The notes under the pieces are model-generated. The model was not told the DNA's origin. It worked only from the letters and a program-made list of their open reading frames with translations, and did not search any database. This document shows, piece after piece, positions 1 through 28,372 of a stretch of DNA of 64,000 nt. The stretch is taken from assembly GCA_964016885.1 (NCBI GenBank), contig OZ024742.1:209498001-209562000 (forward strand), read 5' to 3'. A program made the position numbers and the translations under genes. Source of the DNA: Eledone cirrhosa. Its lineage: Eukaryota. How positions within the stretch are numbered: the first letter of the stretch is position 1; every line of letters begins with the position of its first letter.

Positions 1-324
1 TCTCGGACATGCCCGGCTGACGGCACCTCCATGCCTGTAGAGTTTATCCCGAACTGGCAAGGCTCCTCGGTAGCACTGCCAGGCCAGAGATTTCTGGAAG
101 TTGTCCATAGGCCCTGGCCCGAAAGTTCTTCCGAAGAGATTGGCTAGTTGATTTTCGTCGACGCCTAGAGTTTCCCCAAGTACGTCATCGCTCTTCCCCT
201 CCACTAATCCTCTATAGAACGCCGAGGTGGAGTTTCCACCGATCACATTGCCCGATTGGTCGAGGGCTGTGAGCGCCTGAAGACATTCCAGTCTCCAGGC
301 GCTCCCTCTCGGTCTTCGCTTGAC

Positions 325-3012
325 CTAGGACTGCAGCTCCGTCAAGGAAACGAGCTGGGGAAACACGCGCCTAGCAAACGGCGACCACACCTGATCACCG
401 TCGAGGAAGAGGTGGAGATGTCGTAGCCTGAGCGCGTGCCTGCGCATCATCAGCCACGGCATGCCCAGCCCTCCACGTAGCGGGTGTTGACAACAGATGG
501 ACCGCCTGACCATCGGAGCGCGTCCCTTCCACAAAAAGCGAAAGAGCAAACGCTCCAGCGCAGTCAGGCGAGGCTTAGGACAAGGTACGACGGTCAGACG
601 GTAGCAGATGACGGACGCGATGTACGCGTTAGCCACCTCCGCTCGACCTTTCAGGGATAGCTTCCTCTCCGCCCATTTCTGGGTGAGAGAAGCCACCCTG
701 CTCGTCACCTCGTCCCAGTTTTTGTCCGTCTGGAGGTCCGGACCGAACCAGACCCCTAGCAATTTAACCGGTCCGTCCGTCCAGCGTCCGACGACGCTGT
801 TGGACGGCATGGACCTGCCTCTCCAGGTGCCGAGCTGCAGGCCCACTGACTTTTCCTGGTTGATCATTGCTCCTGTCACCGCTTCGTATTCTCTTAGTGT
901 AGTGCCGATCGCCTCGATGTGTTTGGCGCTCGACACCACTACGGTGACATCGTCCGCATATGCTGACACTGATCTTCCGCATCCTAGTTCGCGCGGGACT
1001 CCCCTCAACGTCTCCAGTTTGTGCAGTAATGGCTCGAGAGTCAATACGTAAAAGAGGGACGAGAGGGGACATCCTTGGCGGACCGAGCGCATGATGTTGA
1101 ACGGTTCCGACAGGTGACCGTTCACTCTCACCACAGAGCAGATGTCGCTGTGCATGGCAGCGATCCAGCCTCTGAAGACGGGCCCAAAGCCAGCCGCCCT
1201 CAGGACTGCCGCTAGGTAACGATGGTCGACCCTATCGAAAGCTTTCGACTGATCTAAATTGATCAAGGACCCACCCGTGCCAGGTTCCCTAGCTACCCTC
1301 TCTACGATGTATCGCATGAGGTGGGGGTTGTCGTGGATGGATCTGTCGGGAATGGCGCATGTCTGCGCCTCTCCCACCAGACCACCAACGACAAGCGCCA
1401 ACCTCTTTGCTAGCACCTTGGCCAAAATCTTAAACTCTGTGTTTAGCAGAGTTATGGGCCGGAAATTGTCTATGTTATCCCCCTTGTTCGGATCCTTTCT
1501 CAGCAGTGCCACCGCTCCTCGGCTCACAGAACTGGGAGTTCTCCCGTTCTGTTGCCAGTTGCAGTAGACGTCCGCCAAGAGGCCTCCGAACAAGTCTGGC
1601 ATCTGTACGTAAAGTTCATAGGGCAGACCATCCAAACCAGGCGATTTACCCCTTGTGCAGCCAGTCATTGCCTCCCTTACTTCAGCGGCTGTTATCGGCT
1701 TTTCGCAACACTTCGCCTCAGTGGCCGAGAGCCGCGGCAGTCCGTCGAGGTAGACACTAAAGTCCATCCCTCTACCCGGCCCACCGCTGCCCCCGAACAG
1801 CTGAGCGAAGTGTCGCTGAAAAGCTTCACACATTTTCCCGGGATCGAGTAGCATGCGCCCGTCGTGGTCCACCAAAGACCGGATCGTGGCTTTGTTGCCA
1901 CGACGCGCCTCCGCCACTCGGGCCCATTGAACGGCTTTCGTCCCCTCGTGTCTGAGAGCACGCACCCTTGCTCTGACAACGCAGCCTTCGTGCTTTGCAT
2001 TGAAGAATTGGTCAAGGGCCAATTTCGCCGCAAGCACGTCGGTCGCAATGCCTTTGCTAAGCGCCTCGTCTAATTTTCTAATTAGTTCTCCCTCTGCTCT
2101 ATTTTTCTCTATTGCTAAAGCCTTACTAAACCTAATCGATTCTATTCTAATCGCTCTTTTCAGAGCAAACCACCACTTGTTGTTGACGATGGCCCCCGTC
2201 AAAGCCCGCTTAACTAGTTCGCTAATCCGGTCTCTGTAGGCCTTGCGCGCTGGTAAGGACGCGTTTAGCTTCCAGTAGCCGGGTCCTCGTCTATGAAGCC
2301 TATCTAAGTCAAGCACACAGATCACGAATTTGTGGTCCGTGTAGCTGACTATCTTGAATTGTGGACAGCCTATGCTAGACCTATCTATTTCCCTACAAAA
2401 TACTCTATCTAGATATGATCTGGATGACCCTATGCGGTTTGTCCAAGTCCACATTGGCACATTCGGGAAATCCAATCGGTACCTGTCAGACAGTTCAAAA
2501 CGCCTGAGCAGGTTGGTGAGGCTCTTGCACCCTCCACCCCTATCCGCTAATCCCACACAGTCCCAGCGTGCATCTAAGATCCCGTTCCAGTCGCCCACTA
2601 ACACTAAAGAGCGGGACGTTCCAAGAAAGGTCTCCAGACGCCGGAAGAAATCAGGCCGCCCTGCTCCTGTCGGGGCATAGACGGCCACTAGCCTGAAAGC
2701 TTGCCCGTCTCCGCTGGTCACGTCCAGCACCACCAGCTTACCCTCTGGGTCCAGGAAGATGGCCCGTATGGCGAGATCCAAACCTCTCCGAAAAAGCACA
2801 GCAACTCCTCCACCCGATCCAGGACGGCTGGGAGATGCGTACACATCGTAGCCGCCGAACATCGGTGCGAAGGCCCGTGCTTCGGAGATTCTGGTCTCGC
2901 TGATGGCCACTACATCTATGTTTAGTGACCTGAGGTCGTTGAGCAGGTGACCCTGCTTCCATGACGACCCCAAGCCACGCGCATTTATGCTGCCTATTCT
3001 GAGTGAGGTCAT
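325..3012 (-). pseudogene. Tx1 ORF2 (AP endonuclease + reverse transcriptase), truncated by a premature TAG
   Basis: APE motifs SINARGL, ISETR, VYAP, GDWN, YLDR, TDH; RT motifs SPGLDG, FRPITLLN, DQSKAFD, VRQGCPLS, YADD. TGG->TAG at 325-327 relative to the 1139-aa copy; homology continues to position 1. Confidence 0.93.
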
Positions 3013-3047
3013 GTTTAAAATAGAGTGGAAAAGATGGGAAAGACCAC

Positions 3048-5060
3048 TTACCGTACTTTTGGTAGAGGAGGGATGGTTTTTACATCCCTTTTCACTTGAT
3101 TGTCTGGTGAAGGGACCGTTGAATCGTCCCTTCGGCTGGTCGTCGGTTCTTCTAAGAGAATGTCTGAATATACTCTTCGATTGATGGTTCCTCCTAGGTC
3201 CCTGAAATCACCAACTGCGTTGGGGAATTTCGTTTTAATGTTTGTGTATTGTTTCTGTGCTATTTTTAGCAGTCTTATGTTAGTTGGCGTTTTGATTGGT
3301 GCTGGTATTATGTAGTCCTGTTGTTAAATGTCTGTGTGTTCAATTATGTAAGTCATTAGTTTCTTGTTGTGTGTATTTATTGCCGTGCATTTGTTTTTCT
3401 GGGGGTGGGGTGTGGTTCTGCTATTTTCTTGTCGTTGTTGCTGGGTGTGTGTGTTTTGTTGTTGTGTTTGCGATGTTGGTGCTTGTGGTGGTGGTGTTGA
3501 AGGTGTTGTTGGCGGTGGGGTTGTCGCCGGTGGTGATGGTGGTGCTAGTGTGGGTGGTGATGGTGTTGGTGGTGTTGCTGCTGTGGGTCTCTTTGCAGTA
3601 GACTTTACCCTTTTCTCATTTCTTTCCTCCCTTTTCAAAGGCGACGATGCGCTGCTTCTGCGTTTGTGCCTTCTTACGACCTTTTGCCATCCCTCTCCCA
3701 CCTCACACTCCATGTCTGATTCTGTGAGGTCGGGGAGGGGTACCAGCTCCACTCTTTCACTTGTTGTTGTTGGTGATGTTTGCACTGGAGTCTCTGTTAC
3801 AGCTGCATTTGGTATTGCTGTTGTTGTTGTTAATATTTCCACTGCTGCTGCTGTTTTTGATTTCCGTGGCGTAGGTATGGGTGCCACGGACCTATCGTTC
3901 CTGGTTGCCGCTTGTCCTGTTGCTGGTAGCCGTGGAGCCGGATTCGGAAGGAGGGTTTTTTTTTCCTTTCTCAGGGTCTTCTCGTTGCAGAAGGCCCTGA
4001 GGTGAGTCTTCGATCCACAGCGAAAGCATTTCGGGCGTTTGCCCTCAACACTTATGGGCAGTTGAGTGCCGTTATCGAAGTCTATCACATCCGGGATAGC
4101 TTCGATGCACACCTGGTTGGTTTGGATTAGCATCTCAATGGAGGTGCCTACCCAATCTTCTCTTACTTTTTTCTGTACTTGCAGTACAGTTGTTTTGTCC
4201 TCGATTCCGACGAGGACAGACGCGGCCAGCCAAGAAGGGGCCATTCCGGGGGGGGGGGGGGGGACTTGGGTCAGTTTGACCCTCACAATTTTTTGCCCGC
4301 AGTAGGAGGGCACCAACACCATTTCCTCGCTCCTTAGGGTCACTACTGATTGGGCCTTTGCCTCCTGGGGTGTGGCAAAAAGTACGTCTACAGTGGCATA
4401 TTTTTTGCCTCGGGTGATGTGCGTTTTCCGCTGCCACACAGACCCCAAGGCTTTTTGTATCTGAGCCTCTGTGGCTCTTTCCACCCTACGGGATTTTGTA
4501 CTTACTGTACGGTACGTGACCGTACAGTGCTGTTGGGTTTCGAAAAATGTTTCCGCTGCCTTGCAGATTGCTCGGTGTCCATTCTTTGTCACCATCTTCT
4601 TCGCTTCCACTAATTCCTCATTTGTTATGAGGATTGTTTCCAAGTTTTTCGCAATGCCTGCAAATGAGATTGGTTTTTCTTTGCTGCTATTGTTGTTGTT
4701 TTCGTCAGAGCTGCTGGTACTTTTGTTGTTGCTGCAGGTACTACGACTACTGCCTCCGCCGCTGTTGCTGTTGTTATTACGGCTGCTACTGCTATTATTC
4801 CTGACGTCAGACGAATGAACTGGGTTTTCGTATTTCCCGCACACCTGTTTCGTCGCTGTCGTCGTCGTCGTGGAGAAACCTTGCACGCTTTGCACGAGAC
4901 TTTTCTTTTCTTTCGTCACTTGTGAAAGAGAAGGGAGGGAGAGAGACACATTTAAAGAAGGGAGGGAGAGAGACAATCTTCTCTCTGCTGTAGTGATGAT
5001 TGAGGAAGAAGAAGACGGAATGAGTGGGAGTGACGTATGAAATTTCTTTTTCGTAGCCAT
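3048..5060 (-). pseudogene. Tx1 ORF1 (gag-like, CCHC zinc knuckle) with premature stop at 3324
   Basis: CFRCGSKTHLRAFC knuckle. TCA->TAA at 3324-3326 versus copy 2, an in-frame loss of ~33 aa in the Ser/Asn tract, and an expanded poly-G (extra Pro) near 4250. Confidence 0.88.
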
Positions 5061-5274
5061 GTTGTTTTTTGTTTAAAATGAATATTGGGTACAAAACCCC
5101 AATAACTGGTTATTTAACCCCGAAGGGCCAAATAACGGACAGAAAGACCCCTCTCACGAGGAGGAGGGTGTCTTTATCAACAATTTGGTTCAAGTTTTAA
5201 ACAATTTATAATTGTTTTAACGGTTAAAAATTACTATACCTTACAGAGCCGAGCCTCCGTCAACCATGGCATTC

Positions 5275-5316
<42 letters not shown>

Positions 5317-5535
5317 CAAAAAACAAAAATCAAAATCAAAGCAGCACAACAAAAAAAAAACGTAAAGAAAATAAGAATGAAGAGAGAAACAAACGGACGG
5401 ACAGAGAAAGGAAGGGAAAAACTAAGTCAGACATTCGAACACTACATTACAATGAAACTTATGCTTATTCATTTTTGGAGTTTTTTCTGCCTGTTTGTTT
5501 GTTTGTTTATTTGTGTTCGTATACAGCGTGATAAT

Positions 5536-8500
5536 GCCACACAAGAGCCACGTGGAGTGACGCAACCACCGGAGGCGGTGAATCCACCGGTGGTTATGTA
5601 ACCATACATTCGCCAATCCTCGATAAGAGTGTTTAAATGTCGAACCTAAACAGTTCGAATAACGGTGAAATGGAGACTAGAACGTCATGTGACAGACTCT
5701 CACCCAACAGGTGCTCCCTGGCTCAGCAGCAGGGACCTGGCTGTTAACCAAATACTGCTGGTGTCGGAGGAAGAAGAAGAAGGAAAGGGACCAGAACCAA
5801 CTGGACGAAAGAATTGAATAGAACTGTTATGCAATGTTACCTGAAAAGTAACCCCAAGGAGAGGGGCTATAGGAAACGGATGCATAACATCTGGAACGAG
5901 ATTGGTCTATTTAAATTAGATGAACAAAAATTGGCCGGGCAGGCTCGGGTAATAAGAACTAATGGGTGGATAAGCGAGCTGGAACTGGAGGAACTGAGCA
6001 GAGAGATTAGCTTGGAGGTGGAGAGTGGAGTATGCCAGGCAAACGAGCCAGTGGGAAATGAAGGTGAAGAGGTCGATAGAACGGAGGAACCACCCGAAGC
6101 AGTCAATGATCTGAATACTGAGATAAATAATTCCTGGAACAGAGATACGGCCACTGAGGAGATGAATGCTGACGGGCTAGGACAAGATTTGGTTGATATC
6201 CTAAATTTAGTGGTAGATGAATTGAACAATGATAGTGGGAGACCTATGAACCTAAGATTTGTAGACAGGAAAAAGTTAAAAGAAACAACAGCTAAGGTAA
6301 ACAAAGTCATCCCATACATTGAGGCGAGGAGCCTTCACCAGTGCAACAATATCATCAAAGCAACAGCAAATACGGTGAGGAAACTACTTGGTATAAAAGC
6401 GAGAGGAAACAACAGACAAGAAAGAGCAGAGCCTTGGTGGAAGAAACGACTGAGTGGTCAAATCAGGGAAATGAGAAATGACATTGGAAAGCTTGAGTCC
6501 CTACTGAATGGGACACTAAAAAACATAGACACTAAAAATAGACTGGAAATAAAGTACAAAACTAGGAGGAAAAAGCTAAATATTATCATAGAGGAACTGA
6601 AGCAACGCATTGTAGCAAAGAGTGCAAAAATCAGGCGATACGAGAACAGAGTCAGTCAGTATAAACAGAACCGCATGTTCAACAACAACCAGAAGATGCT
6701 GTTTGGACAGCTTGAAGAGAAAGAAAGAGGCAACGACTTGATCCCTGAGGCGGAACAAACTAAAACATTCTGGAGAGGAATATGGGAGCAGGATGTTAGA
6801 CATAATGACCAGGCAGTGTGGATTGAGACAGTACAGAAGGAGATCAGTGAACAGGCACACCAACAAACTGATTTGAGTATCACAGTTGAAACTCTTAAGG
6901 GGCAGGCCAAAAAACTAACCAACTGGAAATCACCAGGCTCAGATGGTGCGCAGGGGTATTGGATTAAAAATATAACATCCCTCCACCCGAAACTGACAAC
7001 CATGTTCAATGAATGCTTGATGTCAGGTGAGGTACCAGAGTGGTTGACAAAAGGTACCACAGTTCTGATAATGAAAGACCGAATCAAGGATAATGATGTT
7101 ACCAACTATAGACCTATCACATGTCTGTCCGTAATGTGGAAACTGTTGACGAGCATTATGTCTGAGGAAATCTACCATCACCTCCACACAAACGACTTGT
7201 TACCGGACGAACAGAAAGTATGCCGAAAGAAGTCACGTGGTACAAAGGACCAGTTACTTATTGATAAGATGGTAATGGGGAATTGCAAGAGGAGACACAC
7301 TGATCTTGCCATGGGATGGATAGACTACAAAAAGGCATTTGACATGGTGCCTCATTCTTGGATCACCAAAAGCCTGGAGATCTTCAAGGTGGCAGATAAC
7401 ATCAGACAGTTGTTGGGCAAAAGTATGAGGTCCTGGGAAACAGAGTTGACATCAACTGGAGAATCCTTGGGAAGCGTGAAGATCAAGAGAGGTATCTTCC
7501 AGGGAGATAGCCTGTCCCCTCTGTTGTTTGTCCTTGCCCTGATGCCCCTGACCAGTGTACTGCGAAAAGTGAGAGCAGGATACAGGTTGGGAAAGGGAGG
7601 GCTTACCATCAATCACCTCCTCTTCATGTACAATCTTAAGCTCTTCGGGAAGAGTGAGAAGGAGTTGGGTGTGCTTGTTGACACTGTCCGTATTTTCAGC
7701 AGTGATATATGAATGCAATTTGGTATTAGTAAGTGTCGAGTCATTGTGATGAGGAGGGATAGGTTGAGCAGAAGTAACGGAATCCAGATACCAACAGGTG
7801 AGATGATAAAGGAAATTGACTCTGAGGAAGGATACAAGTATTTGAGCGTTCTGGAGGCTGATGGCATAAAGAACAAAAAAATGAAGGAATTGTTCAGAAC
7901 AGAATACATTCGGAGAGTAAGGAGCGTATTGAAGTCACATCTGAACAGCAGAAATGCCATAAGCGCAGTAAATTCCCGAGCTGTGTCTATTATTAGGTAC
8001 AGTGCGGGAATTCTGAGATGGAATGTTGCTGAACAAAAAGAAATGGATAGGAAGACTAGGAAGCTATTGACTATCTACAACATGTTCCACAAGAGGATTG
8101 ATGTCGATAGACTCTACTTAAGGAGATCTGAGCGTGGAAGAGGTCTTATCAGCATAGAGGATTGTGTTCAGATGGAGAAAAACAACCTACACAAATACGT
8201 GACTGATAGTAAGGAGCCAATGCTCAGAACTGTACTGAAGGAGGGGACAATAGGCCAGGGGATGTCCAAGGAGGAAATAACATCAAGGAGAAAGAGCAGC
8301 CTTCAGGAAAAATCCCTTCATAGTACCTTCTTTGAGAAAACTGAATTTAGAGATCCACAGACATGGAAATAGTTGAAAAGAGAAGACCTTAAAAAGGCTA
8401 CAGAAGGAATGTTAATGGCTGGCAGGTGCAGGCCCTCAAAACGAAGGAGGAGGCTAGCCCACTGTGCAGGATCTGTGGAGAGAGAGAGGAGACTGTGTCT

Positions 8501-9110
8501 CACATTGTATCCGAGTGTAAACACCTAGCCCAGACCCACTATAAAGGCTGGAGACATGATGTGATGGGCAGGGTGATCCACTGGCACCTGTGCAAAGTAA
8601 ACAATTTACCACATTCTGCGAAGTGGTATGAGCATAAGCCAGAGGCGGTGATAGAGAACGATCAGGTGAAGGTGCTGTGGGATTTTAGGATACAGACGGA
8701 CGAGAAACTGGAACACAATAGACCTGAGCTGGTGGTTGTGGACAAAGAAAAAAGATCGTGCCTGATTGTGGATGTGGCCTGCCCATTCGACACGAGAGTG
8801 CAAGAGAAGGAGAGGGAGAAAATTAACCGATACCAGGCCTTAAAGTGGGAGGTAAAAAGGATTTGGAACTGCCATGAAGTCAAAGTGATCCCGATTGTCA
8901 TAGGCGCACTAGGGACTATCTCCAAAAGTTTCCAGGGATGGTTAAAGAAAATCGGCCCCTTCACGCTTTTTGGAACGCTTCAAAAGGCATGCTTGCTGGG
9001 AACAGCAAGAACCCTCCGATATGTCCTGAATATCTGAGGCTGCAGGTAGTGGCTTAATATTCATTCCAACAAACTTTCCAGTAACTAACATCAATGACTG
9101 AGACTCAAGG
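5536..9110 (+). mobile_element. R4/Dong-clade (REL endonuclease) non-LTR retrotransposon, family Dong-A, near full length, inactivated
   Basis: Single-ORF architecture: N-terminal WTKELNRTVMQCY...YRKRM..IW, RT (NYRPITCL, WIDYKKAFD, GIFQGDSLSP), CCHC CRICGEREETVSHIVSEC, RHD, and REL RP(E)LVVVD..IVDVACP. Short 3'UTR followed by an (AAT)n tail. The 5' boundary is approximate. Confidence 0.92.
5670..9037 (+). pseudogene. Dong-A RT-REL polyprotein, disrupted
   Basis: ATG at 5670 is in frame with ORF 5814. Stops at ~5745, 7710 and 8370, and a deletion near 8450. The catalytic FMDD reads FMYN. Confidence 0.88.
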
Positions 9111-9119
9111 AGTAATAAC

Positions 9120-9177: not shown

Positions 9178-10203
9178 CTTTCTTTAGTAACCACAAGGGT
9201 TTACACAAAGTAAGACATTAAGGGCAATACAGGACAATACAGGACAATACAGGACGGTACAAATGGGCATTTCTGCGTGTAAAAAAATAAAGACAGAGGA
9301 TGTAATAAAAAAGAAACAATGAAACATTCCCCAATAGGGGCGAGACTTCCGAGGGACATTCGTGTAGAAAGCCCATTAAGAAAGCCACGGTGACCCTGAC
9401 CACCAGGGCAAGTGACCTCTCCCAGTTTTCCACCTTTAATTTACAGGCACATTCACGCGGGCCACTCTTGCCTCTCTCACCCATCTTTCAACAAAATGCT
9501 GGGAAGAGAGCACTTCCCTCTCTACCCTGATTTTCCTTTTCAAATTAAATTTGAAAAAGTTAATCAGGGCATCACCGAAGAGGTAAGTGCTCATCTTCAG
9601 CCCTTTCAGACGCGTCCACCATACTATCTCTTTCGCCATGGCCACCAGAGGGATAAAAATTGCCTGCCCTTCCCGGCTAAAGGAAGAGGGCGGGACATTC
9701 CTCACGATGGACTCAGCTGATAGCTGGATCCGTCCTACATGTGACAGCAGGTGTTCGACATAAACCCACAAGTAGCAATGCTCGGACACTGGACGAGGTC
9801 GTGCAGGACGGTTTCGTCGCCCTGTGGGCATCTCGGACATGCTCGGCTGACGGCACCTCCATGCCTGTAGAGTTTGTCCCGAACTGGCAAAGCTCCTCAG
9901 TAGCACTGCCAGGCAAGGATTTATGGAAGTTGTCCATAGGCCTCGCCCCGAAAGTTCTTCAGAAGAGATTGGCTAGTTGATTTTCGTCGACGCCTAGAGT
10001 TTCCCCAAGTACGTCGTCGCTCTTTCCCTCCACTAATCCTCTATAGAACGCCATGGTGGAGTTTCCACCGATCACATTGCCCGACTGGTCGAGGGCTGTG
10101 AGCGTCTGAAGACATTCCAGTCTCCAAGCGCTCCCTCTCGGTCTTCGCTTGACCCAAGACTGCAGCACCGTCAATGAGACGAGCTGGGGAAATACGTGTC
10201 TAC
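9177..10203 (-). mobile_element. 5'-truncated Tx1 copy (3' ~1 kb: ORF2 C-terminus + 3'UTR)
   Basis: Homologous to 13424-14465; flanked by (AAT)n on both sides. Confidence 0.93.
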
Positions 10204-10280: not shown

Positions 10281-10301
10281 AAGAAGAAGAAGAAGAAGAA
10301 G

Positions 10302-10697
10302 ACAGTAGACCTGACCTGGTGGTTTTGGACAAGGAAAAAAGATCGTGCCTGATTGTGGATGTAGCCTGCCCATTTGACACGAGAGTGCAAGAGAAGGAGG
10401 GGAGAAAATTAACCGATACCAGGACTTTAAGTGGGAGGTAAAAAGGATTTGGAATTGCCATGAAGTCAAAGTGGTCCCGATTGTCATAGGCGCACTAGGT
10501 ACTATCTCAAAAAGTTTCCAGGGATGGTTAAAGAAAATTGGCCCCGCCACGCTTTTTGGAGCGCTTCAAAAGGCATGCTTGCTGGGAACAGCAAGAACCC
10601 TCCGATACGTCCTGAATATCTGAGGCTGCAGGTAGTGGCTTGATATTCATTTAAACAAACTTTCCAGTTAACTAACATCAATGACTGAGACTCAAAG
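10302..10697 (+). mobile_element. Dong-A 3' fragment (REL C-terminus + 3'UTR)
   Basis: Matches 8715-9110; preceded by (AAT)n(AAG)n and followed by (AAT)n. Confidence 0.9.
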
Positions 10698-11095: not shown

Positions 11096-11138
<43 letters not shown>

Positions 11139-11832: not shown

Positions 11833-11892
<60 letters not shown>

Positions 11893-17141: not shown

Positions 17142-19241
17142 TTACCGTATTTTTGGTAGAGGAGGGATGGTTTTTACATCCCTTTTCACTTGATCGTCTG
17201 GTGAAGGGACCGTTGAATCGTCCCTTCGGCTGGTCGTCGGCTCTTCTAAGAGAATGTCTGAATATACTCTTCGATTAATGGTTCCTCCTAGGTCCCTGAA
17301 ATCACCAACTGCGTTGGGGAATTTCGTTTTAATGTTTGTGTATTGTTTCTGTGCTATTTTTAGCAGTCTTATGTTAGTTGGCGTTTTGATTGGTGCTGGT
17401 ATTATGTAGTCCTGTTGTGAAATGTCTGTGTGTTCAATTATGTAAGTCATTAGTTTCTTGTTGTGTGTGTTTATTGCCGTGCATTTGTTTTTCTGGGGGT
17501 GGGGTGTGGTTCTGCTATTTTCTTGTCGTTGTTGCTGGGTGTGTGTGTTTTGTTGTTGTGTTTGCGATGTTGGTGCTTGTGGTGGTGGTGTTGAAGGTGT
17601 TGTTGGCGGTGGGGTTGTCGCCGGTGGTGATGGTGGTGCTGGTGTGGGTGGTGATGGTGTTGGTGGTGTTGCTGCTGTGGGTCTCTTTGCAGTAGACTTT
17701 ACCCTTTTCTCATTTCTTTCCTCCCTTTTCAAAGGCGACGATGCGCTGCTTCTGCGTTTGTGCCTTCTTGAGACCTTTTGCCATCCCTCTCCCACCTCAC
17801 ACTCCATGTCTGATTCTGTAAGGTCGGGGAGGGGTACCAGCTCCACTCTTTCACTTGTTGTTGTTGGTGATGTTTGCACTGGAGTCTCTGTTGCAGCTGC
17901 ATTTGGTATTGCTGTTGTTGTTGTTAATATTTCCACTGCTGCTGCTGTCTTTGATTTCCGTGGAGTGGGTATGGGTGTCACGGACCTATCGTTCCTGGTT
18001 GCCGCTTGTCCTGTTGCTGGTAGCCGTGGAACCGGATTCGGGAGGAGGGGGGTTTTCTCCTTTCTCAGGGTCTTCTCGTTGCAGAAGGCCCTGAGGTGAG
18101 TCTTCGATCCACAGCGAAAGCATTTCGGGCGTTTGCCCTCAACACTTATGGGCAGTTGAGTGCCGTTATCGAAGTCTATCACATCCGGGATAGCTTCGAT
18201 GCACTCCTGGTTGGTTTGGATTAGCATCTCAATGGAGGAGCCGACCCAATCTTCTCTTACTTTTTTCTGTACTTGCAGTACAGTTGTTTTGTCCTCGATT
18301 CCGACGAGGACAGACGCGGCCAGCCAAGAAGGGGTCATTCCGGGGGGGACGTGGGTCAGTTTGACCCTCACAATTTTTTGCCCGCAGTAGGAGGGCACCA
18401 ACACCATTTCCTCGCTCCTTAGGGTCACTACTGATTGGGCCTTTGCCTCCTGGGGTGTGGCAAAAAGTACGTCTACGGTGGCGTATTTTTTGCCTCGGGT
18501 GATGTGCGTTTTCCTCTGCCACACAGACCCCAAGGCTTTTTGTATTTGGGCCTCTGTGGCTCTTTCCACCCTACGGGATTTTGTACTTACTGTACGGTAC
18601 GTGACCGTACAGTGCTCTTGGGTTTCGAAAAAATTTTTCGCTGCCTTGCAGATTGCTCGGTGTCCGTTCTTTGTCACCATCTTCTTCGCTTCCTCTAATT
18701 CCTCATTTGTTATGAGGATTGTTTCCAGGTTTTTCGCAATACCTGCAAATGAGATTGGTTTTTCTCTGCTGTTGTTGTTGTCGTCAGAGCTGCTGGTACT
18801 TTTGTTGTTGCTGCAGGTACTACGACTACTGCCTCCGCCGCTGTTGCTGTGGTTGTTGTTGGTGTTGCTGCTGCTAATGCTGTTGTTGTTTATGCTGCTG
18901 GTGATGCTGTTGCGGCTGCTACTGTTGTTTTCATTGTCACTGTTGCTGTTGTTATTACGGCTGCTACTGCTATTATTCCTGACGTCAGACGAATGAACTG
19001 GGTTTTCGTATTTCCCGCACACCTGTTTCGTCGCTGTCGTCGTCGTCGTGGAGAAACCTTGCACGCTTTGCACGAGACTTTTCTTTTCTTTCGTCGCTTG
19101 CGAAAGAGAAGGTAGGGAGAGAGACACATTTAAAGAAGGGAGGGAGAGAGACAATCTTCTCTCTCCTGTAGTGATGATTGAGGAAGAAGAAGACGGAATG
19201 AGTGGGAGTGACGTATGAAATTTTTTTTTTTTGGTAGCCAT
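17142..19241 (-). CDS. Tx1 ORF1p (nucleic-acid chaperone, CCHC knuckle), ~699 aa
   Basis: ATG at 19241 (MATKKK, same start as copy 1); CFRCGSKTHLRAFC; Ser/Asn and Pro/Thr low-complexity tracts; stop 35 nt before the ORF2 ATG. Confidence 0.9.
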   Translation of the reverse strand: MATKKKKFHTSLPLIPSSSSSIITTGERRLSLSLPSLNVSLSLPSLSQATKEKKSLVQSVQGFSTTTTTATKQVCGKYENPVHSSDVRNNSSSSRNNNSNSDNENNSSSRNSITSSINNNSISSSNTNNNHSNSGGGSSRSTCSNNKSTSSSDDNNNSREKPISFAGIAKNLETILITNEELEEAKKMVTKNGHRAICKAAKNFFETQEHCTVTYRTVSTKSRRVERATEAQIQKALGSVWQRKTHITRGKKYATVDVLFATPQEAKAQSVVTLRSEEMVLVPSYCGQKIVRVKLTHVPPGMTPSWLAASVLVGIEDKTTVLQVQKKVREDWVGSSIEMLIQTNQECIEAIPDVIDFDNGTQLPISVEGKRPKCFRCGSKTHLRAFCNEKTLRKEKTPLLPNPVPRLPATGQAATRNDRSVTPIPTPRKSKTAAAVEILTTTTAIPNAAATETPVQTSPTTTSERVELVPLPDLTESDMECEVGEGWQKVSRRHKRRSSASSPLKREERNEKRVKSTAKRPTAATPPTPSPPTPAPPSPPATTPPPTTPSTPPPQAPTSQTQQQNTHTQQQRQENSRTTPHPQKNKCTAINTHNKKLMTYIIEHTDISQQDYIIPAPIKTPTNIRLLKIAQKQYTNIKTKFPNAVGDFRDLGGTINRRVYSDILLEEPTTSRRDDSTVPSPDDQVKRDVKTIPPLPKIR

Positions 19242-19515
19242 GTTTTTTTGTTTAAAATGAAATTTTGGGTACAAAACCCCAATAACTGGCTATTTAACCC
19301 CGAAGGGCCAAATAACGGACAGAAAGACCCCTCTCACGAGGAGGAGGGTGTCTTTATCAACAATTTGGTTCAAGTTTTAAACAATTTACAATTGTTTTAA
19401 CGGTTAAAAATTACTATACCTTACAGAGCCGAGCCTCCGTCAACCATGGCATTCAATAATAATAATAATAAGAAGAAGAAGAAGAAGAAGAAGTAGAAGT
19501 AGAAGTAGAAGAAGA

Positions 19516-19839
19516 TTGTATCTATAAAAACATTTGAAAAATTGAGCAAGTATAAGGACCTGGAGATAGAAATTGGAATGATGTGGAAATTGAGAACTAA
19601 AACAATACCAGTGGTTGTAGGCGCTCTAGGAGAAATACAAAAGATAGTACTAATGGGAACTGCCCATATGCTAAGGAAGATTCTGTTAATATAAGTACAT
19701 CACAAGTCTAAACACCTAAAGATGCATGTGTGAGTATGTATGTTCTTTCTTGAACATGGCGGACCTTGTTGTCTCTTGAGGTCACTGGTTGTGACTTGGT
19801 GATAACTCGTATGAACATAAAGGCAAGATAAATGCAGCT

Positions 19840-19840: not shown

Positions 19841-19883
<43 letters not shown>

Positions 19884-20576
19884 TGAAGTGACCGAAACAC
19901 CATATTTACAAGGAGGAGGCTAGCCCACTGTGCAGGATCTGTGGAGATAGAGAGGAGACTGTGGCTCACATTGTATCCGAGTGTTAACACCTAACCCAGA
20001 CTCACTATAAAGGCTGGAGACATGATGTGATGGGCAGGGTGATCTACTGGCACCTATGCAAAGTAAGCAATTTACCACATTCTGAGAAGTGGTATGGGCA
20101 TAAGCCAGAGGCGGTGATAGAAAACGATCTTTTGAAGCTGCTGTGGGATTTTAGGATACAGACGGACAAGAAACTGGAACACAATGAACCTGACCTGGTG
20201 GTTTGGGACAAGGAAAAAAGATCTTGCCTGATTGTGGATGTGGCCTGCCCATTCGACACGAGAGTGCAAGAGAAGGAGAGGGAGAAAATTAATCGATACC
20301 ATGACTTAAAGTGGGAGGTAAAAAGGATTTGGAACTGCCATGAGGTCAAAGTGGTCCTGGTTGTCATAGGCGCACTAGGTACTATCTCAAGGAGGTTCCA
20401 GGGTTGGTTAAAGAAAATTGGCCCCGCCCCGCTTTTTGAAACACTTCAAAAGGCATGCTTGCTGGGAACAGCAAGAACCCTCCGATACGTCCTGAATATC
20501 TGAGGCTGCAGGTAGTGGCTTGATATTCATTTAAACAAACTTTCCAGTTAACTAACATCGATGACTGAGACTCAAA

Positions 20577-20577
<1 letters not shown>
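19884..20577 (+). mobile_element. Dong-A 3' fragment (duplicate of 11139-11832)
   Basis: Identical 158-aa ORF at 20027-20503; (AAT)n tail. Confidence 0.92.
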
Positions 20578-20644
<67 letters not shown>

Positions 20645-20886
20645 TTTTCTTTATTAACCACAAGGGTTCACATAAAGTAGACATTAAGGACAGTACAGGA
20701 CAATACAGGACGGTACAAATGGGCATTTCTGCGTGTAAAAAAACAGAGGTTGAAATAAAATAACAAAGAAAAATTCCCCAATAGGGGGGAGACTTCCAAG
20801 GGACATTTGTGGAGAAAGCCCATTAAAAAACCACAGTGGCCCTGACCACCAGGGCAAGTGCTCTCTCCCAGTTTTCCACCTTTGAT

Positions 20887-23800
20887 TTACAGACACATAC
20901 TCAGAGAAGGCCCATTCATTCGGGCCATACTTGCTTCTCTCACCCATATTTCAACAAAATGCTGGGAAGAGAGCACTTCCCTCTCTACCCTGATTTTCCT
21001 TTTCAAATGAAATTTGAAAAAGTTAATCAGGGCATCACCGAAGAGGTAAGTGCTCGTCTTCAGCCCTTTCAAACGTGTCCACCATACTATCTCTTTCGCC
21101 ATGGCCACCAGACAGATAAAAACTGCCTGCCCTTCCAGGCTAAAGGAAGGGGGCGGGGCAATCCTCACGATGGACTCAGCTGATAGCTGGATCCGTCCTA
21201 CACGTGACAGCAGGTGTTCGACATAATCCCACAAGTCAGCAATGCTCGGACACTGGACGAGTGCGTGCAGGACGGTTTCGTCGCCCTGCGCGCATCTCGG
21301 ACATGCCCGGCTGACGGCACCTCCATGCCTGTAGAGTTTATCCCGAACTGGCAAAGCTCCTCGGTAGCACTGCCAGGCCAGGGATTTCTGGAAGTTGTCC
21401 ATAGGCCCCGGCCCGAAAGTCCTTCCGAAGAGATTGGCTAGTTGATTTTCGTCGACGCCTAGAGTTTCTCCAAGTACGTCGTCACTCTTCCCCTCCACCA
21501 ATCCCCTATAGAACGCCAAGGTGGAGTTTCCACCGATCACATTGCCCGATTGGTCGAGGGCTGTGAGCGCCTGAAGACATTCCAGTCTCCAAGCGCTCCC
21601 TCTCGGTCTTCGCTTGACCCAGGACTGCAGCTCCGTCAAGGAGACGAGCTGGGGAAAAACGTGTCTTGCAAACGGCGACCACACCTGATCACCGTCGAGG
21701 AAGAGGTGGAGATGTCGTAGCCTGAGCGCGTGTCTGCGCATCATCAGCCACGGCATGCCCAGCCCTCCACGTAGCGGGTGTTGACAGCAGATGGACCGCC
21801 TGACCATCGGAGCGCGTCCCTTCCACAAGAAGCGAAAGAGCAAACGCTCCAGCGCAGTCAGGCGGGGCTTAGGACAAGGTACGACGGTCAGGCGGTAGTA
21901 GATGACGGATGCGATGTACGCATTCGCCACCTCCGCTCGACCTTTCAGGGATAGCTTCCTCTCGGCCCATTTCTGGGTGAGAGAAGCCACCCTGCTCGTC
22001 ACCTCGTCCCAGTTTTTGTCCGTCTGGAGGTCTGGACCGAACCAGACCCCTAGCAATTTAACCGGTCCGTCCGTCCAGCGCCCGACGACGCTGTTGGACG
22101 GCATGGACCTGCCTCTCCAGGTGCCGAGCTGCAGGCCCACTGACTTTTCCTGGTTGATCATTGCTCCTGTCACCGCTTCGTATTCTCTTAGTGTAGTGCC
22201 GATCGCCTCGATGTGTTTGGCGTTCGACACCACTACGGTGACATCGTCCGCATATGCTGACACGGATCTTCCGCATCCTAGTTCGCGCGGGACCTCCCTC
22301 AACGTCTCCAGTTTGTGCAGTAATGGCTCGATAGTCAATACGTACAATAGGGACGAGAGGGGACATCCTTGGCGGACCGAGCGCATGATGTTGAACGGTT
22401 CCGAAAGGTGACCGTTCACTCTCACTACAGAGCAGATGTCGCTGTGCATGGCAGCGATCCAGCCTCTGAAGACGGGCCCAAAGCCAGCCGCCCTCAGGAC
22501 TGCCGCTAGGTAACGATGGTCGACCCTATCGAAGGCTTTCGACTGATCTAAATTGATCAAAGACCCACCCGTGCCAGGTTCCCTAGCTACCCTCTCTACG
22601 ATGTATCGCATGAGGTGGAGGTTGTCGTGGATGGATCTGTCGGGAATGGCGCATGTCTGTGCCTCTCCCACCAGACCACCAACGACAAGCGCCAACCTCT
22701 TTGCTAGCACCTTGGCCAAAATCTTGAACTCTGTGTTTAGCAGAGTTATGGGCCTAAAATTATCTATGTTATCCCCCTTGTTCGGATCCTTTCTCAGCAG
22801 CGCCACCGCTGCTCGGCTCACAGAGCTGGGAATTCTCCCGTTCTGTTGCCAGTTGCAGTAGACGTCCGCCAAGAGGCCTCCGAACAAGTTTGGCATTTGT
22901 ACGTAAAGTTCATAGGGCAGACCATCCAAACCAGGCGATTTACCCCTTGTGCAACTAGTCATTGCATCCCGTACTTCAGCGGTTGTTATCGGCTTTTCGC
23001 AACACTCCGCCTCAGTGGCCGAAAGCCGCGGCAGTCCGTCGAGGTAGACACTAAAGTCTATCCCTCGATCCGGTCCGCCACTGCCCCCGAACAGTTGAGC
23101 GAAGTGTCGCTGAAAAGCTTCACACATTTGCCCGGGATCGAGTAGCATGCGCCCGTCGTGGTCCACCAAAGACAGGATCGTGGCTTTGTTGCCACGACGC
23201 GCCTCCGCCACTCGGGCCCATTGAACGGCTTTCGTCCCCTCGTGTCTGAGAGCACGCACCCTAGCTCTGACAACGCAGCCTTCGTGCTTTGCATTGAAGA
23301 ATTGGTCAAGGGCCAATTTCGCCGCAAGTACGTCGGTCGCGATGCCTTTGCTAAGCGCCTCATCTAATTTTCTAACTAATTCTCCCTCTGCTCTATTTTT
23401 CTCTATTGCTAAAGTCTTACTAAACCTAATGGACTCTATTCTAATTGCTCTTTTCAGAGCAAACCACCACTTGTTGTTGACGATGGCCCCCGTCAACGCC
23501 CGCCTAACTAGTTCGCTAATCCGGTCTCTGTAGGCCTTGCGCGCTGGTAAGGACGCGTTTAGCTTCCAGTAGCCGGGTCCTCGTCTATGAAGCTTATCTA
23601 AGTCAAGCACACAGATCACGAATTTGTGGTCCGTGTAGCTGACTATCTTGAATTGTGGACAGCCTATGCTAGACCTATCCATTTCCCTACAAAATACTCT
23701 ATCTAGATATGATCTGGATGACCCTATGCGATTTGTCCAAGTCCACATTGGTACATTCGGGAAATCCATTCGGTACCTGTCAGACAGTTCAAAACGTCTG

Positions 23801-24306
23801 AGCAGGTTGGTGAGACTCTTGCACCCTCCTTCCCTATCCACTAATCCCACACAATCCCAGCGTGCATCTAAGATCCCGTTCCAGTCGCCCACTAACACTA
23901 AAGAGCGGGACGTTCCAAGAAAGGTCTCCAGACGCCGGAAGAAATCAGGCCGCCCTGCTCCTGTCGGGGCATAGACGGCCACTAACCTGAAAGCTTGCCC
24001 GTCTCCGCTGGTCACGTCCAGCACCACCAACTTACCTTCTGGTTCCAGGAAGATGGCCCGTATGGCAAGATCCAAACCTCTCCGAAAAAGCACAGCAACT
24101 CCTCCCCCCGATCCCGGACGGCTGGGAGATGCGTACACATCGTAGCCGCCGAAGATCGGTGCGAAAGCCTGTGCTTCGGAGATTCTGGTCTCGCTGATGG
24201 CCACTACATCTATGTTTAGTGACCTGAGGTCGTTGAGCAGGTGGCCCTGCTTCCATGACGACCCCAAGCTACGCGCATTTATGCTGCCTATTCTGAGTGA
24301 GGTCAT
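20887..24306 (-). CDS. Tx1 ORF2p, subfamily B (1139 aa)
   Basis: Uninterrupted and collinear with 13687-17106, with about 35-40 substitutions counted by eye. Confidence 0.95.
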   Translation of the reverse strand: MTSLRIGSINARSLGSSWKQGHLLNDLRSLNIDVVAISETRISEAQAFAPIFGGYDVYASPSRPGSGGGVAVLFRRGLDLAIRAIFLEPEGKLVVLDVTSGDGQAFRLVAVYAPTGAGRPDFFRRLETFLGTSRSLVLVGDWNGILDARWDCVGLVDREGGCKSLTNLLRRFELSDRYRMDFPNVPMWTWTNRIGSSRSYLDRVFCREMDRSSIGCPQFKIVSYTDHKFVICVLDLDKLHRRGPGYWKLNASLPARKAYRDRISELVRRALTGAIVNNKWWFALKRAIRIESIRFSKTLAIEKNRAEGELVRKLDEALSKGIATDVLAAKLALDQFFNAKHEGCVVRARVRALRHEGTKAVQWARVAEARRGNKATILSLVDHDGRMLLDPGQMCEAFQRHFAQLFGGSGGPDRGIDFSVYLDGLPRLSATEAECCEKPITTAEVRDAMTSCTRGKSPGLDGLPYELYVQMPNLFGGLLADVYCNWQQNGRIPSSVSRAAVALLRKDPNKGDNIDNFRPITLLNTEFKILAKVLAKRLALVVGGLVGEAQTCAIPDRSIHDNLHLMRYIVERVAREPGTGGSLINLDQSKAFDRVDHRYLAAVLRAAGFGPVFRGWIAAMHSDICSVVRVNGHLSEPFNIMRSVRQGCPLSSLLYVLTIEPLLHKLETLREVPRELGCGRSVSAYADDVTVVVSNAKHIEAIGTTLREYEAVTGAMINQEKSVGLQLGTWRGRSMPSNSVVGRWTDGPVKLLGVWFGPDLQTDKNWDEVTSRVASLTQKWAERKLSLKGRAEVANAYIASVIYYRLTVVPCPKPRLTALERLLFRFLWKGRAPMVRRSICCQHPLRGGLGMPWLMMRRHALRLRHLHLFLDGDQVWSPFARHVFPQLVSLTELQSWVKRRPRGSAWRLECLQALTALDQSGNVIGGNSTLAFYRGLVEGKSDDVLGETLGVDENQLANLFGRTFGPGPMDNFQKSLAWQCYRGALPVRDKLYRHGGAVSRACPRCAQGDETVLHALVQCPSIADLWDYVEHLLSRVGRIQLSAESIVRIAPPPSFSLEGQAVFICLVAMAKEIVWWTRLKGLKTSTYLFGDALINFFKFHLKRKIRVEREVLSSQHFVEIWVREASMARMNGPSLSMCL

Positions 24307-24339
24307 GTTGAAAAGGAGTGGAAAAGATGGGAAAGACCA

Positions 24340-26324
24340 CTTACCTTACTTCTCGTAGGGGAAGGACGGTTTTTCCATCCTTTTCACTGCTTGTGGCCTC
24401 CTCAGGAAGTATGTCCTTATAAATCCTCCTGGAGAGTGCTTATCAGAAGTCTCCGATGTCTTTGGGGAATTTTTGTTTTAGTGTCATGTACGTTTTCTGT
24501 GTGATGCGAGTGATTTGTATGTGTGGAGGTGGTGTGAATTTTGGGGTTGTTGTGTAGTCTTTTTCTGTGATGCTGGTGTTGTGTTTGATGTAGTGTAATA
24601 ATTGCTTGTTGTTCAAATTTAATGCTGTGTAGTGTGTATCGTTTTGGTTGTTTTGCTTTGTTTGCGTTTGTTGTGGGTTTGTTTCTGTTTCGCATTTTGG
24701 TGACTTTTGTGGTGTAGGTGATGGTGGTGTTGGAGTTAATGATGGTGATGGTGTTGGTGTTTGGGTTGATGGGGTTGGTGATGCTGGTGTGGATGGTGGC
24801 ATATCTGTCCTAACTTTTTTGTTTCTTAGTTTATTTGTTTCCCTCTGTATTTTGTTTTTGGAGGGGGAAGGAAGAGAATTTTTTCTTTTTTGGTTTCTTT
24901 TTTTTTTTCCGGATATCGTTTCCCACTCCTCGTCGTCACAATCTGTCTCCAGTTGTGATAGGCCGGGGAGTGGAAAATCCTCCACAGCCGTTAGTTTTGG
25001 TTGTAGTGTGGTGGATGGTGTAGGCGCTGGTGCTAGTTCTGAAGCGTTGGGTGGTGGTGGTGTTGGTTTTGCTGGTGGTGGTAGTGGTGTTGGTTTTGCT
25101 ACTGTTGCTGGGGTTGTTGCTGTTATAGTTGCTTCTGTTGTTGCTGCTACAGTTGTTGCTGCCATCTCTGCTACTGGTGGTGTTGATGGTTGTGTCACTG
25201 GGGTGGGTAGGAGAGGTGGCCTCAACCTTTTAGCCTGAGGGCAGAAAGCCCTTAGGTGGGTTCCTTCACCACAAACGACACACCTAGGTCTTCTGCCCTC
25301 GACAATTACCGTGAGGTGGCTGCCGTCAGTGAGGTCTATTACCTCTGGGATCTCCTCAATGCTTTTTTGGTCCGCTTGGATCAGGAGCTCCATCCCAGAT
25401 CCGGACCAGTTTTCCTGCTTTTCTTTTGCTACTGCTATTATTTTCGTGTTGGCTTCGATGCCGGCGAGGACGGCCGCTATTAGCCAGGGAATTTCGATGG
25501 CCGGTGGAACGTGGGTCACCCTGATCTTTACGAGTCTCTGGCCACAATAGCTTGGGACGAGTGTGAGGTCGTCACTTTTTAATGGGGCCATGGAGTGTTC
25601 TCTAGCCTCCTCTGGTGTTTCAAAGAACACATCCACGGTTCCATACTTTTGCCCACGTCTGATGTGGGTTTTTCTTGCCCACACATGTCCCAAAGCTTTT
25701 TGGATTTGGGACTCGGATGCCCGTTCCACTCGGCGCGATTTTACATTTATTGTTCTATACGACACGGTGCATAGGCGCCGATGCTCCATTTTATTAGGTG
25801 GGGGGTGAGGCTGACCCTGTACCCATCTTTCTTTACCATTTGTTTGGCATTTTCTAAATCTTCTTGAGTTACGGTAAATGCTTCGAATTGTTTTGCTACT
25901 CTGGCGAAACTGAGGGGGGGGTTATAATGTCATTGTTGTTGTTGTTGCTATCGTTAATATTAATTTTAGTTTCAGTTGTGGTGGTGGTGACGTCAGTCGT
26001 CTTTGGTGGGGAAGAGTCCATTTTGCTTGATTTCATTTCGACGTCACGAGTTAATTTATTTTTTTCTTCTTTTGTTTCTGTTGTCGCGGTGGTGGTGGTG
26101 GTGGTGGTTGTCGCGGTGGTGGTGGTGGTGGAGGCTTTAACACCTGCAGTCATTGGTAATGGCGGGAAATGAATGTCTGCCTGAGACAAATTTAAAATAT
26201 TGCTACTGCTTATATTTTTTTTTGTGTTGGCAAACGTAGTAACATTTACAATGGTGGTGTCGGTGTGAGGTGTTATTTTGTGAGGAAGGCTTTCAGCTGC
26301 TTCGTGCAGAGGTGAAGTAGCCAT
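24340..26324 (-). pseudogene. Tx1 subfamily B ORF1, split by frameshifts/stops
   Basis: Pieces 25896-26324 and 24443-25789; CVVCGEGTHLRAFC knuckle; frame breaks at G runs (~25800, ~25915) and TGA TAA near 24443. Confidence 0.82.
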
Positions 26325-26533
26325 TTTTTTTCAAAGAAATTTTTTGATAATAATAAAAGTTAAAATTTTGGGCACAACGCCCCAATCTTTTTAGGTGTCC
26401 TTTTCGGAAAACAATGTATGTGTGCTTATAAACAGTTAACAATAAAATTTTCCATAAATGGCAATTTTTAAACAAACGGAAATAACAAACCTTTGCGGAG
26501 CTCACGATAATACGATTTCCTACGTAGGTCGCC

Positions 26534-26587: not shown

Positions 26588-26590
<3 letters not shown>

Positions 26591-27961
26591 TGAATGCAAG
26601 GAATAGGATCGATGCCATAAACACGCTTGCCATACCAGTAGTAACCTACAGTTACAATGTCATCAACTGGTCAAGCACAGAGATCCGTAGGCTCGATACA
26701 AAAATCCGAAAATTCTTAACCATGCACAGAATGCATCACCCTAAGGCAGACATAGATAGAATATATCTCCCTAGGAAAGAAGGAGGACGTGGGTTAATCC
26801 AGTTAGACATTGCGTTGAAAACTGCAACAATTGGATTATCCACATATCTAAGGGAATCACATGATTGGATGATCAAACTCGTTTTGAAACACGAAAGCAC
26901 CAAAAGATCATATTCCATTACAAAAGATGCACAAAGATACAGTAATGGACTACAAATTTCAGAAGTCCCATTTACTGCTGAAATGGAAAACACAGAAAAA
27001 GCAAAGCAGGTAAAAGTAACTGCAAAGAAAGAACTGCTACAGAAACTGGCTAAGAAATGGCAAGAAAAGCCTCTGTATGGAAAATACCCAGAGCGAGCTA
27101 ACAATCCTGATGTTGACAAAACTTTAACCCATCAGTGGTTGGCATCCTCTGGACTGAAATCGGAGACTGAAGGACTGATTATATCCGCACAAGATCAGTG
27201 TCTGCCAACAAAAAATTACCAAGCCAACATAATAAAAAATGGGTGCAGCCCATTATGCCGTGTATGCAAAAAACAACCAGAGACCATTGACCATATAATT
27301 TCAATGTGCAGTCCTATAGCTCCAACCGAATACCTAAACAGGCATGACAGAGCTGCACAATACATACATTGGATAATGTGCAAGCATTTTGACCTGCCCC
27401 ATCAAAAGAATTGGTGGGAGCATCAACCACCTCCCATACTTGAAAAAGATCACATCTCAATCTTGTGGAACTTTAGCATCCAAACAGACCGAAAAATAGA
27501 TGCAAATAGACCTGATATAATATTGAAGGACTTTCAAAGGAGGGTATGCCTGCTAATTGATATGTCTGTTCCAATAGACAAGAATGTATCTATAAAAACA
27601 TTTGAAAAATTGAGCAAGTATAAGGACCTGGAGATAGAAATTGGAAAAATGTGGAAATTGAGAACTAAAACAATACCAGTGGTTGTAGGCGCTCTGGGAA
27701 TGATACCTAAGGGGTCTAACGACTACTTATCGCAAATCCCAGGAAACCCGCGTATAGGAGAAATACAAAAGATAGTACTAATGGGAACTGCCCATATACT
27801 AAGGAAGATCCTGTCAATATAAGTACATCACAAGTCTAAACACTAAGGATGCATGTGTGAATATGTGTGTTCTTTCTTGAACATGGCGGACCTTGTTGTC
27901 TCTTGAGGTCACTGGTTGTGACTTGGTGATAACTCGTATAAACATAAAGCAAGATAAATGC
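26588..27961 (+). mobile_element. R4/Dong-clade family Dong-B, 5'-truncated, open 410-aa C-terminal ORF (26590-27822)
   Basis: RIYLPRKEGGRGL, ETEGLIISAQDQ, CRVCKKQPETIDHIISMC, RHD, REL RPDIILKD..LIDMSVP..K..KY; (AAT)n tail. Confidence 0.93.
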
Positions 27962-27962
27962 A

Positions 27963-27992
<30 letters not shown>

Positions 27993-27993
<1 letters not shown>

Positions 27994-28308
27994 GTGGAAA
28001 TTGAGAACTAAAACAATACCAGTGGTTGTAGGCGCTCTGGGAATGATACCTAAGGGGTCTAATGATTACATATCGCAAATCCCAGGAAACCCGCGTATAG
28101 GAGAAATACAAAAGATAGTACTAATGGGAACTGCCCATATACTAAGGAAGATTCTGTCAATATAAGTACATCACGAGTCTAAACACTAAAGATGCACGTG
28201 TGAATATGTATGTTCTTTCTTGAACATGGCGGACCTTGTTGTCTCTTGAGGTCACTGGTTGTGACTTGGTGATAACTCGTATGAACATAAAGCAAGATAA
28301 ATGCAACT

Positions 28309-28309
<1 letters not shown>
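27993..28309 (+). mobile_element. Dong-B 3' fragment
   Basis: Repeats 27651-27961; followed by (AAT)20 to 28370. Confidence 0.9.

Positions 28310-28372
<63 letters not shown>

Follow-up and report, generated by a model that had tools for sequence, protein, structure and literature searches.

How does a stretch of chromosome come to be composed of two kinds of retrotransposon, each confined to its own strand and all of them joined through one simple repeat? The question is raised by the first 28,370 positions of a 64,000-nucleotide stretch of the 3.0-Gb genome of Eledone cirrhosa (contig OZ024742.1, here C3, positions 209,498,001-209,562,000), referred to below as the window. This part holds only non-LTR (non-long terminal repeat) elements, namely five Tx1-like copies, all of them minus-strand, and nine Dong-like ones on the plus strand. 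Every one of the 14 gaps that separate or follow them is (AAT)n, with a continuation into (AAG)n in five cases; a preliminary description of the sequence had arrived at the same counts, strands and junctions. The region contains 14 long AAT-strand tracts, against not a single run of three or more units on the ATT strand, and the AAT junctions are accordingly not a matter of chance. We consider it quite probable that a Tx1-like clade of the L1 group with an apurinic/apyrimidinic-type endonuclease (APE) and two R4/Dong-like families with a restriction-like endonuclease (REL) occupy (AAT)n throughout the genome, in opposite and fixed orientations, and that they likely build nests through duplication of the tract.

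Target tracts and element orientation

Three sets of Tx1 ends were drawn from the genome, each comprising the best 30 of 40 scored matches with one window copy included. The 3' ends of the form Tx1a, its 5' ends and the 5' ends of the form Tx1b adjoin (AAT)n in 30/30 cases each, and the element is always antisense to the AAT strand. Among all collected loci, at least five AAT units border the 5' end of 82 of the 83 full-length Tx1 copies, and at least three units that of 10 of the 11 5'-truncated ones. Dong tails carry at least five units in 78/86 (DongA) and 50/52 (DongB) cases, as do the 5' junctions of truncated copies (38/45 and 24/27, respectively); many entries in these Dong counts were found as neighbours of other elements. 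When sets were picked by the Dong 3' end alone, at least four units were present at 14/20 DongA and 9/9 DongB 5' junctions.

A background sample of 99 evenly spaced 10-kb stretches (990 kb) gives the same picture. Direct contact of sampled tracts with a family member was seen for 27/63 on the AAT strand and for 0/63 on the opposite strand, and other repeats hardly ever touch a member (AAC 0/54, ACT 0/15, ATC 0-1/41, AAG 0-1/7). Of the 61 tracts away from stretch edges, 33 are in contact with a member of the Tx1 or Dong families, and a Dong tail is present at 15. Counting family members with at least 80% identity, these elements make up 4.6% of the sampled DNA, and the AAT targets are interstitial and lie on many contigs. 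Thus the earlier proposals that this Tx1 family is (ATT/AAT)n-specific with strict polarity, and that the Dong families use the other strand of the same repeat, are upheld genome-wide and, for Tx1, at both ends. Counts of truncated copies and of the (ATCT)n elements described below come from loci already collected; short queries with 3' untranslated regions (UTRs) matched nothing in the genome although copies exist. The Tx1 junction pattern had 0 matches in metagenome contigs.

What are these elements? The second open reading frame (ORF2) of the Tx1-like copies contains Exo_endo_phos (an N-terminal APE), RVT_1 and zf-RVT (a C-terminal zinc finger) according to Pfam, and its best match of solved structure is human L1 ORF2p (E 2e-52), far above R2. 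A separate ORF1 carries the motif C-X2-C-X4-H-X4-C in both of its types, for which a Pfam search called no knuckle family despite the visible CCHC motif. A CCHC knuckle in ORF1 is a Tx1 trait. The label 'Tx1-like' is based on this domain layout together with target specificity; the 44 homologues carried no informative names. Where the text of PMC4494074 speaks of a target when a preference appears in more than 20% of flanks, 90/90 ends among the best-scoring copies lie at the repeat here. Tx1a and Tx1b are about 95% identical in ORF2 and largely different in ORF1 and the 5'UTR, a pattern that would reflect modular replacement of the 5' part. Young Tx1a copies located on different contigs are 1-8 substitutions apart over 6 kb.

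DongA and DongB each have a single ORF with reverse transcriptase (RT), CCHC motif and PD..D..K endonuclease, and no APE. Open frames of 1141 and 1216 aa are found at loci L207 and L208, and among solved structures DongB matches nothing but R2 proteins, in alignments that reach across the REL domain. The two families have 35% protein identity, yet their 5'-terminal ~490 bp are common at 74% (full-length copies L204 and L208), which suggests either an exchange of 5' ends or a conserved RNA or promoter element.

How might opposite orientations arise on one duplex? Under the model of target-primed reverse transcription, the strand antisense to the element would be nicked first. Accordingly, the AAT strand would be nicked and used for priming by Tx1, frequently at ATAAT|G, and the ATT strand by Dong, so that the two lineages would come to lie in opposite directions. 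We envision that each insertion duplicates part of the tract and thereby leaves two targets usable by any of the families. A constant Tx1 nick at the right edge of the tract, with the left tract the longer one, was considered and rejected (19 versus 13, p=0.38), as was the Dong version of this asymmetry (46 versus 32, p=0.14).

Nest growth

The nest starts about 5.3 kb upstream of the window, near C3:209,492,710, at an (AT)n(AAT)3 boundary, and extends over about 33.7 kb with 15 elements, including a sixth, diverged Tx1 copy upstream. Positions 5313-5535, nearly all of the segment 5311-5535 that had been taken for host DNA, run contiguously into DongA in 40 scored genomic matches and lie within the 5'UTR of full-length DongA. 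The window part of the nest is therefore without host DNA, and the suggested growth from one Dong insertion at an empty site 5535|28371 fails for the same reason. Four of the 14 pieces in the window derive from a duplication, so that the nest comprises 11 independent insertions and one duplication.

This duplication is informative because its two units, W1 and W2 (Table 1), show one site both in its empty form, (AAT)5 in W1, and in its filled form, (AAT)5-Tx1a-(AAT)5 in W2. The Tx1a insertion in W2 produced a 15-bp target duplication and added no tail, and insertions thus regenerate targets, as had been supposed; the accompanying idea of growth by insertion alone is not supported, given the duplication of the W block. 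In five sets of element ends, a further member lies on the far side of the tract in 48-70% of cases. A branching model with a neighbour fraction of 0.5-0.65, which ignores tract length and serves as a consistency check only, leads one to expect about 20-370 nests of at least 12 insertions, so the window nest is plausibly part of the upper tail and not a special locus. Further nests lie at C2:91.7M, C2:188.05M and C4:288.5M. At L274:1330-1800, an old REL fragment meets an old Tx1 copy at a short AAT tract, in opposite orientation as in the nest; from this junction, the pairing of Tx1 and REL elements may be old.

How was the W block duplicated? The unit measures 2.7 kb, and W2 equals W1 over about 2.6 kb without substitution. 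The two differ only in the lengths of their repeats, in the Tx1a that W2 has gained and in the last ~60 nt of the Tx1 fragment, which in W2 match Tx1a and neither W1 nor the adjacent Tx1b. The duplication was likely triggered by a new insertion. Similar units exist elsewhere. The locus C4:288.5M has two Tx1a copies with 4 differences in their 3' 3.6 kb; these copies have two private 5' alleles in common, and behind each lies the same 565-bp spacer containing a DongA fragment. At C2:188M, five Tx1a copies are each followed by the same 54-bp variant spacer, and copy 3 differs from the other four at 13-14 sites. All three duplicated units end at AAT|G. Conceivably, a new Tx1 primes at AAT|G and its complementary DNA (cDNA), or the newly inserted copy, recombines with an adjacent resident Tx1; copying through to the nick would then duplicate the whole block, Dong fragments included.

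We lean towards such an invasion of a resident copy by Tx1 cDNA as the route of duplication. For these duplications taken by themselves, unequal exchange is nearly as likely an origin. Unequal crossover in an individual heterozygous for a new insertion would yield the same hybrid products, and a switch of C2:188M copy 3 to a resident neighbour before column 4797 is unsupported, the neighbours' allele at 4797 being absent from it. It is a different matter to suppose that nests as a whole grow mainly by unequal exchange at the DNA level between direct repeats, with insertions as mere seeds. The W1/W2 duplication and the one identical variant spacer behind five Tx1a copies at C2:188M fit this supposition, and R1 arrays provide a precedent in the consulted part of PMC5932611. 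However, 11 of the 15 elements of the nest have distinct truncation points or sequences, adjacent Tx1a copies at C2:91.7M are 30-50 substitutions apart, and the duplicated units break at short AAT|G and keep variant units, with no crossing in long pure tracts. We therefore regard this wholesale version as quite unlikely.

A common target pool, its short interspersed element and the locus

Do the two lineages depend on each other? The preliminary description had Tx1 making special use of the (AAT)n tails left by Dong. Such dependence or preference might be expected from the alternation of the lineages in the window and from the share of Dong tails among sampled tracts (15/61), and Tx1b 5' ends face Dong in 12/29 cases versus 13/61 in the background (p=0.08). 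Yet no excess of Dong is found at Tx1a 3' ends (7/29, six by script and one by eye, versus 15/61; Fisher p=1.0) or 5' ends (6/29 versus 13/61, p=1.0), or of Tx1 at Dong tails (13/59 versus 8/61, p=0.23), the end sets of 29 being those of 30 with the window copy dropped. Moreover, 10/29 Tx1a 3' ends (by script) face neither lineage, nor the short interspersed element (SINE) introduced below. A Tx1 preference for Dong tails is thus quite unlikely, and the enrichment test does not bear out the special use claimed: Tx1-like and Dong-like lineages draw on a common target pool without mutual preference. Tx1a is enriched next to Tx1 itself (12/29 versus 6/61, p=0.001; 13/29 versus 8/61, p=0.003), and this remains when arrays are counted once (10/27, p=0.005; p=0.03).

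The SINE is 183 bp long, has a tRNA-like head that presumably includes a box B, and gave 130 matches in the first 800 kb sampled. Direct repeats of at least 12 nt flank 31/61 full-length copies versus 0-2 in 12 shuffled pairings; the 36 repeats that reach at least 9 nt have a median length of 14 nt, and almost all of them begin with ATTAT. Its last 30 nt resemble the 3' ends of five Tx1 types (2-181 per 5000 shuffles; Tx1c 2, Tx1a 18) and show no likeness to DongA (4166/5000) or DongB (1078/5000), although the common stretch with Tx1 is only about 25 nt. These features suggest that the SINE is likely driven by Tx1, through the same machinery acting at shorter ATTAT sites. At L303, L292, L260, L234 and L288, SINE copies stand in tandem, and between them lie repeats of the flanking target duplication.

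Related elements occupy other repeats. A sister Tx1 clade ends in (ATCT)n and forms chains of its own (L282, L238, L235, L246, L307); in a tree rooted at its midpoint only, its six rows separate from 13 rows of the ATT clade with support of 100/100, and the APE domains of the two are about 60% identical. At L234 and L241, several copies in a row belong to a diverged REL family that ends in (ACAT)n and whose protein is about 30% identical to that of DongA.

Could long tracts be a consequence of insertion and not its target? The enzymes might need only a short ATTAT, with long tracts arising at or after insertion (by tail addition or slippage) or other copies being purged, and the SINE duplications do start with ATTAT at non-repetitive sites. 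This we deem very unlikely, because long tracts also border 5' ends, those of truncated copies included, and because in W1/W2 a pre-existing (AAT)5 was duplicated with zero units added. That the array is an assembly mis-join across microsatellites is the least credible alternative: the tested 5.2 kb is spanned by no listed contig or read and W1 and W2 are nearly identical, but copies carry lineage-specific variants, W2 has a hybrid end and contains one more insertion, flanked by a clean target duplication, and the same junction types recur at dozens of loci, on many contigs and in the evenly spaced samples.

Several observations nevertheless weigh against our interpretation. Contigs X1 and X2 and the 150-nt reads X4 and X5 gather from all copies and leave the tracts unspanned. 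The unbiased set of DongA 5' junctions (14/20 with at least four units) is less clean than the others. The copies searched are those most like the window's, so that young lineages are over-represented, and the background of 61 tracts is small. The clade names Tx1-like and Dong-like come from domain layout and not from a tree that includes named references. Within a repeat, the exact position of a nick is not readable, and the proposed mechanism derives from sequence and the target-primed model. The enrichment of Tx1 beside Tx1 is unexplained by a uniform use of tracts. Finally, SINE copies sit at short imperfect ATTAT sites, which implies either that the minimal site of the enzyme is short or that another Tx1 family moved the SINE.

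A broader scheme, which we offer tentatively as possible rather than probable, would treat long (AAT)n as a self-renewing target kept by a guild: an APE clade on one strand, two REL families on the other and a Tx1-driven SINE that seeds ATTAT sites. Tx1 cDNA invasion would carry REL fragments as passengers, parallel guilds would exist on (ATCT)n and (ACAT)n, and the microsatellite spectrum would be shaped by retrotransposons and not by slippage alone.

The features of the locus are collected in Table 1. At the left boundary of the nest (L091:4200-4700) lies a near-perfect inverted repeat with ~130-bp arms between (AT)n runs. Beyond the nest, the window contains an RT-bearing ORF (Pfam RVT_1; 33844-34995, plus strand), ORF fragments at 39070-44708 (plus strand) that include a PIF1-like helicase at 43521-44708 and are likely a Helitron remnant, inverted repeat arms flanking an (AT)n palindrome with a SINE fragment inside (49903-50527), and, within 51823-57502, a diverged direct repeat (51823-53774 versus 54052-55987, 83%) with several ORFs.

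Table 1. Elements of the nest and related features, in window positions unless C3 is given.
Feature	Position	Strand	Remarks
Tx1c, sixth, diverged Tx1 copy	about C3:209,492,720-209,497,279		upstream of window
Tx1a copy 1	1-5274	minus	3' ~670 bp upstream of window
DongA	5313-9111	plus	5'-truncated within 5'UTR; ORF with stops/frameshift
Older Tx1 copy	9179-10201	minus	5'-truncated; start of W1
DongA 3' fragment	10298-10698	plus	W1
Empty (AAT)5 site	10710-10724	plus	W1; counterpart of the W2 site filled by Tx1a copy 4
DongB 3' fragment	10767-11091	plus	W1; internal deletion
DongA 3' fragment	11136-11833	plus	end of W1
Hybrid Tx1 fragment	11895-12906	minus	start of W2; 3'-terminal ~60-95 nt of Tx1a type, rest identical to 9179-10201
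DongA 3' fragment	12997-13397	plus	W2; identical to W1 copy
Full-length Tx1a	13424-19454	minus	open ORF1 (CCHC knuckle) and ORF2 (APE, RT, zinc finger); (AAT)5 on both sides
DongB 3' fragment	19512-19836	plus	W2
DongA 3' fragment	19881-20578	plus	end of W2
Full-length Tx1b	20644-26533	minus	
DongB	26588-27962	plus	5'-truncated; open C-terminal REL domain
Second DongB 3' fragment	27994-28305	plus	9 substitutions versus neighbouring DongB; likely an independent insertion
Terminal (AAT)20 tract	28310-28370	plus	followed by unique host sequence
SINE copy	46425-46571	plus	outside nest; 3' end resembles Tx1 3' end

Comparison with known systems

What would such a system contribute? An APE and a REL enzyme would read the same duplex from opposite strands, and the sister APE domains with their different repeats, together with a young intact copy, offer material for studying a switch in APE specificity. 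Since the families make up 4.6% of the sampled DNA and about half of the long AAT tracts are in contact with them, they also bear on the origin of microsatellites in large invertebrate genomes; AAT markers that are unstable or multi-locus there might be explained in this way. Each ingredient has relatives elsewhere, for which we draw on parts of the papers cited.

Two non-LTR families that share a repeat in opposite directions are known in TRAS and SART, members of the R1 clade. In Bombyx mori they insert into one simple repeat in opposite orientations, with specificity residing mainly in the endonuclease (PMC7265360), and our 27/63 versus 0/63 is of this kind. Unlike that pair, in which both partners are APE-type and the target is telomeric (TTAGG)n, an APE and a REL lineage here meet on a dispersed interstitial trinucleotide repeat. 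Convergence of an APE and a REL lineage on one target has likewise been reported, for Keno (Tx1 clade, APE) and Utopia (REL) at U2 snRNA genes (PMC4640811); those elements use the same 3' flank in a low-copy gene, and opposite polarity or mixed nests are not described in the consulted part of that report. In view of both precedents, to call the locus an undescribed system, as was first suggested, was too strong.

The Dong side resembles Dong, DongAg and DongBg, which target TAA repeats (PMC3812793, PMC3774820), in having (TAA)n at both junctions and a single ORF with RT and C-terminal REL. Dong of B. mori has a 5' hepatitis delta virus (HDV)-like ribozyme (PMC3774820), which was not detected in the copies here: Rfam searches of Dong or Tx1 5' ends at five loci gave only sub-threshold microRNA-type matches, and a home-made HDV-like descriptor, used without positive-control validation, matched 1/23 5' ends. 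On the Tx1 side, microsatellite-specific families include Kibi on (TC)n, Koshi on (TTC)n and crocodilian elements on (TTCC/TTTC)n, and SINEU shares its target with Tx1-Mar (PMC4494074), much as the present SINE shares that of its likely partner LINE (long interspersed element). Neither (ATT)n nor (ATCT)n is a target in the consulted text of that paper, whose Fig. 3 labels or supplements may list more. Within the literature searched, the two repeats extend the range of targets of Tx1-like elements. Neither a Tx1 specific for (ATT)n nor a nest that mixes Tx1 with Dong came up in this literature (on Tx1, Dong, AAT/ATT nests and the SINE); an earlier description may be held in Repbase, Dfam, Kojima and Fujiwara 2004, or the supplements and figure labels of PMC4494074, which lay outside the search. 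The consulted parts of PMC3124438 and PMC4758252 contain no Tx1 or Dong target data, and in the repeat annotation of Octopus vulgaris (PMC13282606) Dong-R4 and L1-Tx1 families are listed as active, the part consulted containing no analysis of their targets.

Nest growth, too, has its counterparts. In Drosophila, target duplication permits reinsertion in R1 tandem arrays and dimers of transposable elements, and dimers expand by unequal exchange (PMC5932611); R1 is a single family in ribosomal DNA, whereas here mixed-lineage nests have formed at many dispersed tracts. Templated insertions of L1, in which a nascent cDNA anneals to homologous DNA close by so that a segment is duplicated (bioRxiv 10.1101/2024.08.27.596794), are somatic and mostly below 250 bp, in contrast to units of 0.05-2.7 kb with passenger REL fragments in an assembled genome. 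Taken together, the nests of Eledone cirrhosa are a new combination of known behaviours, real and genome-wide.

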